Below are positions 1 to 23,871 of a DNA stretch of 24,192 nt, piece by piece. Each line of letters opens with the position of its first letter. Within the stretch, counting starts at the first letter, position 1. Source of the stretch: Pseudomonadota bacterium (GTDB lineage Bacteria; Desulfobacterota; BSN033; WVXP01; G020346125); contig DAOVGJ010000029.1 of the NCBI GenBank assembly GCA_030672465.1, positions 1 through 24,192 on the forward strand, read 5' to 3'. The notes under the pieces are model-generated. The model was not told where the DNA came from. It did not search any database and saw only the letters and a list, made by a program, of their open reading frames with translations. Both the position numbers and the translations under genes were made by a program.

Positions 1-56
1 CTGTGCCGTCTGATTTATGACTTTTTACGAGACCATCTTAGAATGGTCAAAAAGTC
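1..56. repeat. Imperfect inverted repeat (19-56), possibly the end of a MITE-like intergenic element that runs off the left edge
   Basis: Seen: GACTTTTT(19-26)-ACGA-GACCAT(31-36)-CTTAGA-ATGGTC(43-48)-AAAAAGTC(49-56), followed by TTTTT(57-61) on +. It could act as a + strand intrinsic terminator. From memory, GATGGTCTCGTAAAAAGTC (minus strand 37-19) resembles ends of palindromic intergenic repeats in deltaproteobacterial genomes; this is unverified. Confidence 0.5.
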
Positions 57-185
57 TTTTTAGTAAACGAAGGGGATTTGGGCAATAGCCCGTTTAACGG
101 ATGAATCCAAAGGTTGTGGCATGGGGAAGCTGCCGAGTGCCCCTGCCGAAGATGTGGAGAGCTCAAACACGGTCCGATTCCGGAT

Positions 186-10583: not shown

Positions 10584-11291
10584 CTAGAGATATCTCTCAA
10601 ACCACTCCAGGCTCATCTCAATGGCCTTTTCGCGATGATCGGGATGGTTTAGCCTGTGATCACCCCCCTCGATGATCTCCATTTTTTTGGGGTAATTGAG
10701 GTGTTCGTATATCATCCTTGCTTGCTCCACGGGGACGAGTTCGTCTCGATCCCCATGGATCACCAGACAGTTGGGCACCTTCCCCAGGGCGGAGGTGAGG
10801 TTGTGGGCTTTTATGTCGTGGAAGAATTCCTCCCCCAGCGATGCCATCTCTTCGTCCCCCCTCTTCTCCTCAAGGCCAGCCAGGGTAAAGGGGGTTGCCC
10901 ATGTCACCACAGACCGGATTCCATTCTCCCCTGCCGATACGATCAGCGAGATGTAGCCGCCCAAGCTACTTCCCATGAGTCCGATCCGGGGGCCGATCCA
11001 AGGATGTGATCTAACGAATCCGATGGCCATGTTCAGGTCCCTCAACCGGTCCGATACGGTGGTCTCCGTGGTTTTTCCCCCGCTTTCACCGCATCCCCTG
11101 AAGTCGAACCTGAGGAAGGCTATCCCCTTCCGATGAAATCGATGCCCGAGCGTAATATATTTTTCGCTATCCTTGCTGCTGAAGAGCCCGTGGGAGGCAA
11201 TCACGCAGGAAGGCTTTTCCATGTCGGGCAGATGAAGCGCCCCTACAACCGCTTGCCCATGGCTGGAAAAGGAGATCTTTTCCACTTTCAT
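10584..11291 (-). CDS. Alpha/beta-fold hydrolase (serine esterase/peptidase type)
   Basis: Oxyanion HG motif (SHGLFSSK), FDFRGCGES, nucleophile GSSLGG, acid HGDRDELVP, His in GGDH. Start is ATG 11291 or TTG 11303. Confidence 0.88.
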   Translation of the reverse strand: MKVEKISFSSHGQAVVGALHLPDMEKPSCVIASHGLFSSKDSEKYITLGHRFHRKGIAFLRFDFRGCGESGGKTTETTVSDRLRDLNMAIGFVRSHPWIGPRIGLMGSSLGGYISLIVSAGENGIRSVVTWATPFTLAGLEEKRGDEEMASLGEEFFHDIKAHNLTSALGKVPNCLVIHGDRDELVPVEQARMIYEHLNYPKKMEIIEGGDHRLNHPDHREKAIEMSLEWFERYL

Positions 11292-11302
11292 GGCGATTTC
11301 CA

Positions 11303-11415
11303 ACGCTAAATTGCGGTTCTGCAGTGTTGCGGTGCTGCAGTCATGCGGTTACGGCGGTGTGGATCTTAATCAAACTACTTGATACATTCATCCTAAGAGC
11401 GAGTTTTTCAGGGAT
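11303..11415 (-). repeat. Degenerate, inverted second copy of the murD-ftsW element, including a 5-unit 8-nt tandem repeat
   Basis: 11322-11351 matches the reverse complement of 22462-22491 at 29/30. 11311-11322 (TTGCGGTTCTGC) is identical to 22421-22432. 11405-11415 is the exact reverse complement of 22316-22326 (TIR core ATCCCTGAAAA). Octamers: ttgcggtt|ctgcagtg|ttgcggtg|ctgcagtc|atgcggtt (11311-11350). Confidence 0.75.
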
Positions 11416-11704
11416 TTTCCAGGGTTCCTTTCCCCTGGCTTCCCGCAGCTTCTCCTATGATGAGACGAATATATGGCCTCATGGAAACGGAGGAGAGATC
11501 GAACTGTCTCAGCGCCCGAACCAAGAGATCTATCCTCTCCCCGTGGGGCATTCTCCTGTCCATGATGATCACATTCCTTCCCCGGAGCTTACACAATCCG
11601 CCCTCGACTTTGAAATCCATTCCCATCAGATCGTCGTATCGGACCGCAATGGAGAGCTTTTCCGCTATCTCCTCCAGCTCCTGTAATAGGCGATTCTCCT
11701 CCAT
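11408..11704 (-). CDS. Small hypothetical protein (98 aa)
   Basis: Collinear with its neighbours and protein-like (LLQELEEIAEKLSIAVRY...GGLCKLRGRNVIIMD...RPYIR). Start is ATG 11704 or GTG 11725. Confidence 0.75.
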   Translation of the reverse strand: MEENRLLQELEEIAEKLSIAVRYDDLMGMDFKVEGGLCKLRGRNVIIMDRRMPHGERIDLLVRALRQFDLSSVSMRPYIRLIIGEAAGSQGKGTLENP

Positions 11705-11711
11705 CGACGTT

Positions 11712-11741
11712 ATCTTATCCTTCACGAGGGAAATTTTTCAA
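11712..11741 (-). promoter_or_regulatory. Putative sigma70 promoter, possibly giving a leaderless transcript
   Basis: Minus strand TTGAAA(11741-11736)-18 nt-TAAGAT(11717-11712), then 7 nt to ATG 11704. Confidence 0.4.
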
Positions 11742-21170: not shown

Positions 21171-22267
21171 GTGCTTCTCGCCTTTGATGAAATGTTGAGG
21201 AGAATGCCTACCCCCATTGCATTGACGAGTAGGGACGTTCCCCCGTAACTGATGAAGGGGAGGGTTAGTCCCTTTGTGGGGAGTAGTCCGAGAACTACCC
21301 CCATATTGACGATGGCCTGCATCGAGATCATGGCTGTTATCCCTACCGCGAGAAGGGTCCCAAAGGATTCTTCTGTCATGAGGGCAATACGGATACCACG
21401 AATCGTGAACAGGGCGAAGAGACCCAAGGTGATGGTTGCGCCCACCATGCCCAGTTCCTCCCCGATTACGGAGAAGATAAAGTCGGTATGCGGGGCTGGC
21501 AGAAAGAAGAGCTTCTGGCTCCCGCCTCCCAACCCTGTGCCGAAGAGGCCTCCTGATCCGAATGCAAGAAGGGATTGAACGATCTGGAAGCTCGTTCGGC
21601 TGGGATCTTCCCATGGGTTCAGGAATCCAATAATCCGGTTATACCGATAATCAACCCTCATGATCAGCAGATAAATGATGGGAATGGCAGCCAAAATGGA
21701 GGACACCAAATAAGATATCCTCGCTCCTCCGATGAAGAGGAGCATTAATACCATGGTTGCCAAGAAGATGGCCACACCGAAATCCGGTTGGAGCATGACC
21801 AAATAGATCGTTATTCCCGAGATTATGAGGACCGGAAGAAAACCCGTGGAGAAGGTTCTCATTCGATCTCCCTTTTTCTCCAAGAAGTAAGCCAAGAAGA
21901 TGATGAGGGCCAGCTTTGCGAACTCCGAGGGCTGAAAGGAGAGGTTGACGAGCCGAATCCAACGGGTCGACCCACCAACCTTGTATCCTATCCCCGGAAT
22001 CAAAAGGAGTATGAGGGACATCAGGCTTAGTCCCAATATGGGATAGGCCAATCTTTTCAGAAGGGTATACGGGGTATTCATCATCACCATCATTATCACC
22101 AAGGCAAAGGCACCGAATAGGGCCTGTTTTTTTAAGAAATAGTAACCGTCTCCGAACCTATCCGCCGCAAGAATGGCACTGGCACTGTAGACGATCACGA
22201 TCCCTACCCCAATCAACGAGATGGTAATAATGAGCAGGGACAGATCATATTGGGCCCTTTCCCTCAT
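21167..22267 (-). CDS. ftsW: Peptidoglycan polymerase FtsW (SEDS family)
   Basis: Multi-TM protein; RWI, FQPSEFAK, QPDFG, LPAPHTDFIFSVIGEELG, LPTKGLTLPFISYGGTS; position murD-ftsW-murG. Confidence 0.97.
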   Translation of the reverse strand: MRERAQYDLSLLIITISLIGVGIVIVYSASAILAADRFGDGYYFLKKQALFGAFALVIMMVMMNTPYTLLKRLAYPILGLSLMSLILLLIPGIGYKVGGSTRWIRLVNLSFQPSEFAKLALIIFLAYFLEKKGDRMRTFSTGFLPVLIISGITIYLVMLQPDFGVAIFLATMVLMLLFIGGARISYLVSSILAAIPIIYLLIMRVDYRYNRIIGFLNPWEDPSRTSFQIVQSLLAFGSGGLFGTGLGGGSQKLFFLPAPHTDFIFSVIGEELGMVGATITLGLFALFTIRGIRIALMTEESFGTLLAVGITAMISMQAIVNMGVVLGLLPTKGLTLPFISYGGTSLLVNAMGVGILLNISSKARST

Positions 22268-22310
22268 GCCTTTCGAGCTCCCTTGGGATTTCCCTCGCCA
22301 AGTTGATTAA

Positions 22311-22540
22311 TAGAGATCCCTGAAAAGGTCGTTCTTCGCTGCTCAAAATCTTTTTTTGACCATTGTAAAGTTCGCTTCACCGCAAATCCAAAACTCGCCC
22401 TACGGGCTCAAACGTTGCAGTTGCGGTTCTGCGGGCGCTTGAATGATAATGTGCACTGCCCTAACCGCATGACTGCAGCACTGCAACACTGTATAATTTC
22501 GCGCTCAGACCTCCTTTTTCCAGTTTTTCAGAGGTCTCTA
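22311..22540. mobile_element. 230-bp non-autonomous MITE-like element with 16-bp imperfect terminal inverted repeats
   Basis: Left TAGAGATCCCTGAAAA (22311-22326); right, reverse-complemented, TAGAGACCTCTGAAAA (22540-22525); 14/16 identical, with TA at both ends. Internal hairpins are present and there is no transposase ORF. It interrupts a normally abutting murD-ftsW junction. Confidence 0.8.
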
Positions 22541-23871
22541 ACAATCTCCTTAAAGATGTTTCCCCTCTCCTCGTAATCCCTGAACATATCGAAACTTGAA
22601 CATGCCGGGGATAAGAGCACCACATCGCCGTGCTTCGATTCATCAAAGGCTCGATGGACCGCCTCCTCAAGGGTATCGGCTACGGTGGTAGGGACGGAAG
22701 TCCCCAAGGCCTCAGCCATTCTCCGCTTCGCTTCACCCATTAAGATGAGCCGCTTCACCCTTTCGGTAACGATCCCTTTGAGAGGGCCGTAATCTCCCCC
22801 CTTGTCCTTTCCCCCCGCGATCAAAATGATGGGCTCGTGGAAACTCCTCAAGGATTTGACCACGGCGCCCACATTGGTTCCCTTGGAGTCATTGTAAAAG
22901 TTCACCCCATTCAGTTTCCTCACGAACTCCAAACGGTGAGGCAGTCCTCTGAAGGACTCCAGGGCAGTCTGGATAGCCCTCTTTGGACAGGAGCAGATTT
23001 TGGCCGCTGCCACGGCAGCCAACATGTTCTCGATGTTGTGGATTCCCTTCAGGGAAACCCGTGCGAGCTCCAAGCGCTCAACGTTTCCCTTTGGATCACG
23101 GCACATGAGCGAGTCCCGGTCAAGGAATGCCCCTGCCTCCAGGGGAGATGTAAGGCTAAAATACCATTTTCTCGCCTTGATCTCAGAGCTCATCGCGTTG
23201 ATGGTCCCGTCATCGGCATTGAGGACGGCAAAATCCGAGCCCCGCTGGTTCAAAAAGAGCCGAAATTTAGCCCTGATGTACTCCTCATAATCGGGATACC
23301 GGTCTAAATGATCCTTGGTGATATTGAGCATGAGGGCGATATAGGGCCTAAATTCAGCGATTCCTTCCAGTTGAAAGCTGCTGATTTCGGCCACCACATA
23401 ATCCCATTTACCCCCTCCGGCACAATCGATCAGGGGATTACCCACATTTCCCCCCACGAAGACCTTCTTACCGGATACCTTGAGCATATCCCCGAGGAGG
23501 AGGGTGGTGGTGGTCTTTCCGTTTGTCCCCGTTACCCCGATAATCGGATCTCGGATGAATCGGCACGCCAGCTCGATTTCGCTTATGACCTCGATGCCTT
23601 TCTCCCGAGCCGCCGTGAGGGGTTCGATACTGAGTGGAACCCCTGGACTGACGACGATCAGGTCGGCACTCAAAAAGGTCTCAATCCTGTGCTCACCAAG
23701 GTCGGTCCTTACGTTGAGCCTCCGTATTGTGGACCAGTACTCCCCCAACTCATCGGCGGATCGAATATCAGTTCCCATAACCCGCGCCCGCTGCTCGGCC
23801 AGAAATCGGACAACCCCTATTCCCGTCCTGGCCATTCCCACCACTAAGACCCGCTTTCCCTGCAGTTTCAC
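22528..23871 (-). CDS. murD: UDP-N-acetylmuramoyl-L-alanine--D-glutamate ligase
   Basis: VLVVGMARTG, VVSPGVP, GVTGTNGKTTTT, EISSFQLE, LNITKDHLDRY, GLPHRLE, YNDSKGTN, LLSPACSSFDMF. The last codons and the stop lie inside the element's TIR. Confidence 0.98.
   Translation of the reverse strand: MKLQGKRVLVVGMARTGIGVVRFLAEQRARVMGTDIRSADELGEYWSTIRRLNVRTDLGEHRIETFLSADLIVVSPGVPLSIEPLTAAREKGIEVISEIELACRFIRDPIIGVTGTNGKTTTTLLLGDMLKVSGKKVFVGGNVGNPLIDCAGGGKWDYVVAEISSFQLEGIAEFRPYIALMLNITKDHLDRYPDYEEYIRAKFRLFLNQRGSDFAVLNADDGTINAMSSEIKARKWYFSLTSPLEAGAFLDRDSLMCRDPKGNVERLELARVSLKGIHNIENMLAAVAAAKICSCPKRAIQTALESFRGLPHRLEFVRKLNGVNFYNDSKGTNVGAVVKSLRSFHEPIILIAGGKDKGGDYGPLKGIVTERVKRLILMGEAKRRMAEALGTSVPTTVADTLEEAVHRAFDESKHGDVVLLSPACSSFDMFRDYEERGNIFKEIVRDL

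Follow-up and report, generated by a model that had tools for sequence, protein, structure and literature searches.

A probable MITE remnant carrying the stop codon of a conserved small gene in an uncultured Thermodesulfobacteriota genome, and the dense repeat family around it

The window analysed in this study, meaning the whole stretch of DNA under analysis, is 24,192 nt long and comes from the source MAG G000, whose nearest named relatives are uncultured Thermodesulfobacteriota and 'Syntrophobacterales' MAGs. The assembly is fragmented (1.64 Mb in 278 contigs, 75% complete, 50.6% GC). According to the ORF list, every gene in the window is located on the minus strand. The locus of interest lies in a constant gene string, which consists of a TIGR03960-type radical SAM gene, a conserved small gene, an alpha/beta hydrolase gene, a further small gene and mfd. 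The spacer between ORF 11408-11725, the longer form of the first small gene, and the hydrolase gene is 104 nt, and the ATG at 11291-11289 is the probable start of the hydrolase. Searches for homologues of the small gene gave matches in 22 of the 41 related genomes and to 62 proteins of the database, with identities of 64-99%. Repeat sequence is present directly behind this gene (called locus 2 below), between murD and ftsW, and at the contig end. The features are listed in Table 1.

Table 1. Features of the window that bear on the repeat family (strand as read in the window; empty cells where nothing is given)
Feature	Position	Strand	Remarks
Alpha/beta hydrolase gene, downstream of the small gene	10584..11291	-	Pfam; N-terminus MKVEKISFSS kept in orthologues
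Deletion junction and leftover host spacer before the hydrolase ATG	11292..11310	-	Distal TIR and ~35 nt of host sequence absent
Octamer/16-mer array, (ACYGCAnn)n	11311..11351	-	TRF period 16, 2.5 copies; inverted match to 22454-22496
Subtype-specific internal module of the GAATGTATCAAGTAG...GATTAAGATCCACACCGCCG class	11352..11403	-	Matches C162, C85, C16, C247, C24 and others at 65-75%
Proximal TIR of the probable locus-2 remnant, AAAATCCCTGAAAAA	11404..11418	-	12/15 to GAGATCTCTGAAAAA; then R-type continuation CTCGCTCTT
TGA stop of the 98/105-aa gene	11408..11410	-	TIR positions 9-11; from the ORF list
Conserved small gene, 98 aa from ATG or 105 aa from GTG at 11725	11408..11704	-	No family match in Pfam and NCBIfam searches
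Target-site duplication TAATA	22308..22312		Partner TAACA at 22539-22543; minus-strand reading TGTTA / TATTA
Complete 226-bp MITE between murD and ftsW	22313..22538	+	R-type end faces ftsW, L-type end faces murD
murD stop TGA	22528-22530	-	Inside the TIR at 22524-22538
Partial copy of the repeat superfamily, the third in the window; its end is of the second subtype (TTTTTGACCATTCTAAG)	1..94 (contig end)		Self-BLAST depth 26; R-end nhmmer match C140 74-

The original prediction, made from the letters of the window, was that locus 2 and the murD-ftsW element share a repeat, and this was confirmed. A repeat search of the window returned two inverted arms of 43 nt at 11317-11359 and 22454-22496 with 88% identity, BLAST gave a core of 29/30 at 11322-11351, and the 11-mer ATCCCTGAAAA, which had been reported as an 11/11 match to the core of the terminal inverted repeat (TIR), was exact at 11405-11415 on the minus strand and at 22316-22326 on the plus strand. 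A chance match of the two loci was considered and rejected. In the 1.64-Mb genome, 14 occurrences of the 11-mer were counted, compared with 0.78 expected for uniform sequence, and the module of the 43-nt block has about 50 genomic copies, the array stretch 11311-11351 being covered by about 50 genomic BLAST matches. The collinearity that had been claimed for the two loci held for the 43-nt block and the 11-mer, but the other two of the four proposed blocks were not homologous: AAAACTCGC belongs to the R-type end CTGAAAAACTCGCTCTT at locus 2 but to a different internal module at 22400, and AATTT-n-GCG is a trivial match. The earlier description of locus 2 as a murD-ftsW element with an internal deletion was rejected as well. 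Copies of another subtype, at least 14 of them, align with locus 2 nearly end to end (positions ~2-127 of 130; 65-75% identity), and what locus 2 lacks is a terminus rather than an interior.

The end profiles for nhmmer were seeded from both ends of the murD-ftsW element, and the searches returned 68 L-type and 88 R-type ends in G000. Self-BLAST of the same genome gave 346 repeat regions, which amount to 3.8% of all bases and are distributed on 199 of the 278 contigs. Alignment of 107 distinct ends gave a 15-nt terminal inverted repeat at both ends with the consensus GAGATCTCTGAAAAA; the conservation in the logo was 0.69-0.96 per position over the 15 positions, and the flanks of these ends were AT-rich and unconserved. 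TIRs with one mismatch at most numbered 47 in G000 (19+28) and 23-44 in each of the seven congeners, which together with G000 formed the eight-genome genus comparison, and a reversed-pattern control at the same threshold gave 0 matches in the eight genomes. A second family of the order harbours copies of the repeat as well, with sporadic ones further afield.

In the two-ended copies (n=31), the facing ends were 64-404 nt apart and no ORF of note was found inside. Among 29 two-ended copies, the 5-bp flanks were perfect duplications in 8 and agreed at no fewer than four of five positions in 18, whereas permutation gave means of 0.30 and 1.42 and maxima of 3 and 8, respectively. The mean 5-bp flank identity in these copies was 0.74 versus 0.30 by permutation, and duplications of 2-4 or 6-9 bp gave no signal. 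The interiors were mosaics of few modules, including an L-end extension containing AAGGAGCTCTGAGC, an R-end extension GTCGCTCTTCGCTGCTCAAAATATTTTTTCGACCATTCTAAAG, the module GAATTTATCACGTAG..., a variable octamer array and a second end subtype. In the octamer array (window 11311-11350 and 22463-22496), the number and order of the units vary among copies and among orthologous loci in a minisatellite-like manner. The predicted multicopy, mobile element family was thus borne out by the whole-genome repeats, the TIR logo, the 5-bp duplications and the empty sites described below. Judging from its sequence organisation, it appears to be a family of MITEs (miniature, non-autonomous DNA transposons) with a mosaic interior of interchangeable modules, namely two kinds of end, the octamer array and others. 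It displays every structural feature of a bacterial MITE, except that an autonomous partner was not found in the genomes searched.

At murD, the site was empty in four relatives (L013-L016, MurD 81-85% identical), in which the flank TGTTA occurs once and the uninterrupted sequence reads ...AAGGAGAT-TGTTA-ATCAAC..., i.e. ...GAGATTGTTAATCAAC... MurD of these relatives ends with KEIVNQLG...ARKA*, and its TGA overlaps the ftsW ATG. In the source genome, MurD ends with KEIV-RDL and a stop inside the TIR. The former last 15 murD codons (INQLGEGNPKGARKA in the old frame) remain there as a spacer at 22264-22312, and the old murD TGA still overlaps the ftsW ATG. Since the old murD tail is retained as a spacer, ftsW keeps its native ribosome-binding region, and the translational coupling to murD is lost. 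Duplications of 2 bp (TA) or 3 bp (TTA) at murD were also considered and were rejected in favour of 5 bp, based on the duplication statistics and the empty sites.

The stop of the upstream gene falls inside a TIR at both loci, as predicted. The TIR carries a TGA at positions 9-11, in frame for one of the three entering frames, so that this frame is stopped after two to three element codons. Whether the C-terminus of the small gene is foreign was a further question of the original prediction, and the answer is split. The tail AAGSQGKGTLENP is host-derived up to L, with a codon-for-codon match to GDDSGSEDKRIP of the orthologue L098, and GEAAGSQGKGTL, whose foreign origin had been suspected, is host sequence orthologous to GDDSGSEDKRIP of this sister lineage. 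The element contributes only the last two to three codons, (E)NP, and the stop, which lie in the TIR at 11404-11418. The TGA was assigned to the element because of the protein register (K-G-T-L versus K-R-I-P) and the R-type continuation CTGAAAAACTCGCTCTT. An alternative alignment with GAATCCCTGA of L098, in which the TIR motif is host sequence, was considered and ruled out. The homologues P0005 and P0007 share a ...GKGTLENA/P tail.

The structure of the small-gene product was modelled with AlphaFold. The model is of alpha/beta type and confident for residues 1-84 (mean pLDDT 78, pTM 0.69); the confident fold extends through the helix PYIRLII (residues 77-84), and the pLDDT of residues 87-98 is <50. 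The tail is therefore predicted to be disordered from about residue 87, and it is the sole freely varying part of the protein among 41 homologues. As a separate observation, the host sequence CCCTGGAAAA stands directly before the TIR core TCCCTGAAAA in window 11404-11424 (TRF period 11, 1.9 copies), and the orthologous host sequence in L098 is GAATCCCTGA; the gene tail thus carries a TIR-like decamer. Its position at an insertion hot spot could reflect targeting to sequences that resemble the inverted repeat.

Orthologous loci of several relatives were compared to follow the history of locus 2. The metagenomic orthologue L095 has no element; its small gene ends with ...EDK-TGA, and TCATA occurs once in its 85-nt spacer. 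The more distant L097 has no element either, and its gene extends to overlap the hydrolase GTG. These loci, together with the MurD ending in ...ARKA*, agree with the expectation that relatives without the repeat have other C-termini and stops. L098, whose protein is 95% identical to that of the source genome, contains a minimal 64-nt MITE at TCATA, and G007 contains a roughly 150-nt L-type copy at TCATA, both with a perfect duplication. In these two, the stop of the small gene is a TAG formed by the flanking TA and the first G of the TIR. In the source genome and in G005, G006 and G001, where the orthologous proximal TIR is present, an R-type TIR directly follows ...GGAACCC(T/G)G, and the TIR-borne TGA ends the small gene in G005, G006 and the source genome.

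The distal TIR is retained in G005, where it is followed by TCATATCA... The junction AACCGCAAT..AGCGTTGG is common to G000, G001 and G006, and ~75 nt are absent from it, corresponding to the distal TIR and ~35 nt of host spacer. This deletion was judged against G005, G007 and L098, where both the distal TIR and the host TCATATCA... are still present. Since the junction is common to three independent assemblies, an assembly artefact or chimera at locus 2 is unlikely. The locus-2 copy has the gene-proximal TIR only, the outermost positions of this TIR are degenerate, and no duplication is recognisable. With its distal TIR and flanking DNA lost, the copy is no longer able to move. From these alignments, locus 2 is best described as a remnant of a member of the MITE family and not as an intact member, and as an old, fixed, one-ended copy whose junction is shared with two congeners. 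A nested AT-rich insert of ~130 nt, GTATATGAGAGAATACA...CAAAACGTTTAGGATTT, was also observed in the MITE of L002 (G001) and L004 (G005), about 100-230 nt past the small-gene stop. It is unrelated to the MITE, occurs in G002 as well, and probably represents another small repeat family.

In our main reading, to which we assign a probability of roughly 0.85, window 11311-11418 is a fixed, degenerate, one-ended MITE remnant that was inserted in the tail of the small gene and donates its TGA. A MITE copy would have inserted in the poorly conserved and probably disordered 3' tail of the gene, presumably mobilised in trans by a transposase, and the insertion would predate the split of several species of the genus. 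The reading frame entering the TIR would then end after two to three element codons, as E-N-P-stop, and the small gene would keep its folded core; the disorder of the tail may be the reason why the insertion was tolerated. In the order of events that seems most plausible, the interior would have been partly replaced later, probably by recombination between copies, and a deletion of roughly 75 nt would have removed the hydrolase-side TIR together with flanking host DNA.

The arrangement of the ends can also be explained by two independent insertions at a hot spot, in which the TIR-like decamer of the host (CCCTGGAAAA / GAATCCCTGA) attracts the transposase and adjacent MITEs recombined into a chimeric one-ended copy. 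We regard this course as possible but doubtful. The R-type end is located right after CCCTGG in G000, G001, G005 and G006, the L-type end of G007 and L098 is located 12-35 nt further, at TCATA with a perfect duplication, and the host decamer beside the TIR makes up an 11-nt tandem repeat. In addition, G005 joins the upstream R-type end to a TCATA-flanked distal end. These positions speak for two insertions, but the upstream end has no recognisable target-site duplication, the flank logos of the family are only AT-rich without a TIR-like motif, and a 16-nt deletion plus end conversion by another copy fits the same data. The end types at locus 2 are compatible both with one ancestral insertion followed by rearrangement and with two hot-spot insertions.

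An extension of this idea is that the tail is a recurrent landing pad, to which the transposase is attracted by the TIR-like decamer, and that the ends of the element, which offer a stop to every entering frame, either inside ~33 nt or where flank and TIR join, are shaped so that operon-internal tail insertions are tolerated. We consider this unlikely. If it were true, the MITEs would be recurrent uncouplers of translationally coupled pairs, e.g. murD-ftsW and the small gene-hydrolase pair.

The positions of the family relative to genes were surveyed in G000 using a home-made codon-usage-scored ORF picker, which gave 1589 genes and 84% coding sequence. With these scored gene calls, the TIR TGA was the stop of a gene at 2 of 108 TIR ends, both of them in the window, and at 2 further ends the stop straddled the flank/TIR junction. 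Stops were located 1-18 nt before the TIR at 8 ends and 19-200 nt before it at 24 ends, and 72 ends had no gene reading toward them within 200 nt. In a looser count, in which any ORF of at least 60 codons was accepted, stop donation was found at 5 of 107 ends, and no such ORF read into 82 of the 107. Among 207 internal repeat regions, 12 were inside genes and 195 in spacers. The spacer repeats were divided among tandem, divergent and convergent spacers as 118/56/21, compared with 80/9/11% of all adjacent gene pairs, which is a three-fold excess in divergent (promoter-side) spacers and a depletion in tandem ones. In tandem spacers, 61 repeats were nearer the stop and 57 nearer the start (p=0.78). 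Given the two stop donors, the excess in divergent spacers and the lack of a stop-side bias, the family does not target the 3' ends of genes, and it donates stops only occasionally, as a side effect. The proposal of an element family that is found within operons where genes end, and that brings the stop along, accordingly failed.

As a rival explanation, the same proposal takes the family to be specialised, by targeting or by selection, for the 3' ends of operon-internal genes, where it provides its own stop and the host genes survive such a benign insertion. Both cases in the window are real, and within its 33 nt the L-type end presents a TGA to two of the three frames, the second one at offset 31. 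A flanking T or TA together with the first bases (GAG) of the TIR also forms TGA or TAG, as seen in L098, G007, C76 and C227. Because of the TIR TGA, the second TGA of the L-end and these junction stops, insertions in a dispensable tail add few residues, and the element-encoded tails are indeed short. However, the small number of donated and straddling stops, the 82 ends without an incoming ORF, the preference for divergent over tandem spacers and the even split within tandem spacers all stand against such a strategy, and the logo shows no higher conservation at TIR positions 9-11 than at the positions beside them. We therefore hold it to be very improbable. That the repeat is no transposon remnant but has been maintained between the genes for a function, as a structured RNA or as a binding site for protein (REP/BIME-like, attenuator or sRNA), is scarcely credible: the octamer array is periodic, and the end-to-end fold of the complete murD-ftsW element surpasses that of shuffles (z = -2.65), but the fold of locus 2 is no better than shuffles (z = +1.0), Rfam gave no match at the gathering score in the window and none at E<=1 in 11200-11500, neither a terminator nor a promoter was predicted in the locus-2 element, the interior is very different between orthologues and contains the nested insert in G001 and G005, and the TIRs, duplications and empty sites show transposition.

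A transposase partner was searched for in G000 and its congeners. In G000 and G001, only ordinary genes, and no transposase, were found between TIRs paired at distances of 0.6-4 kb. Two such pairs had been candidates for the autonomous partner, one 1.3 kb apart in G001 and one of 1.7 kb in G000; the former was rejected for the ordinary genes between its TIRs and the latter for a GT20 glycosyltransferase. The IS4/IS5-type (PF01609) transposases of G002, G004 and G006 were rejected as well, being without the family TIR; the check for the TIR in congeners covered PF01609 transposases, in MAGs that are incomplete. Since these searches found no autonomous element or transposase with the family TIRs, mobilisation in trans by a transposase is a step that we infer for the MITE reading.

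The family was compared with known systems. It resembles pneumococcal BOX and E. coli BIME elements in being modular, with few modules in varied combination and number between conserved ends; BOX and BIME elements are not known to have the TIR-plus-duplication signature, whereas both TIRs and duplications are present here. The MIRUs of Mycobacterium are reportedly operon repeats whose ends overlap the neighbouring stop and start codons, and are said to form tandem units of 46-101 bp with no TIRs or duplications and with a systematic stop/start overlap. In contrast, the present elements are single and not tandem, and their stop overlap is rare (2-4 of 108 ends). REP/REPIN sequences, which are RAYT-mobilised GC-rich palindromes, do not match, as the family has TIRs and 5-bp duplications and no significant fold was obtained for locus 2. 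In Correia elements, the TIRs measure 26 bp and the duplicated target is TA, whereas the family has a 15-bp TIR and a 5-bp duplication without fixed sequence, and there is no sequence similarity between the two. What they have in common is that both are abundant TIR-bounded spacer elements, sometimes fused to ORFs, whose transcripts fold end to end. For these Neisseria miniature insertion sequences, ORF fusions are described, and the size variants differ in their open and stopped frames (PMC2229807).

A parallel to the stop event is reported for MITEAba12 of Acinetobacter, where fusion of the element to a gene lengthened the 3' end by 31 bases and created a premature stop (PMC6382973). It is likewise short, non-coding and multicopy, with TIRs and duplications and without a transposase of its own, and the stop event is of the same kind as at both loci of the window (PMC6382973). 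MITEAba12 is uniform at 113 bp, makes 9-bp duplications and has the partner ISAba12 (PMC6382973), whereas the present family has a different TIR, 5-bp duplications, a length of 64 to about 400 bp, a mosaic interior and a copy number in the hundreds for a genome of small size, and our searches gave no partner. A variable short tandem array inside a MITE has a counterpart in Porphyromonas gingivalis, where a MITE with an internal minisatellite is reported, in another host and with another sequence and unit (PMC4596501). The mechanism itself is not new, since stops supplied by a MITE fused to a gene have been described before (PMC6382973, PMC2229807).

In this genus, the repeats have consequences for the reading of its genomes. 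In G000, 102 of the 346 repeat regions are located within 150 nt of a contig end, which indicates that the repeats of the MITE family break the assembly and explains the poor assembly of MAGs in the genus. Gene callers will give element-derived C-termini at loci of the kind described here. For biology, the value lies in clean before/after pairs, in which insertions clip gene tails, donate stops and part gene pairs that formerly overlapped; one of these pairs lies inside the essential dcw cluster. Taken as MITEs, the elements would constitute a previously undescribed and very dense family, defined by GAGATCTCTGAAAAA and 5-bp duplications, that makes up at least 3.8% of the assembly and inhabits an uncultured Thermodesulfobacteriota genus and related genera.
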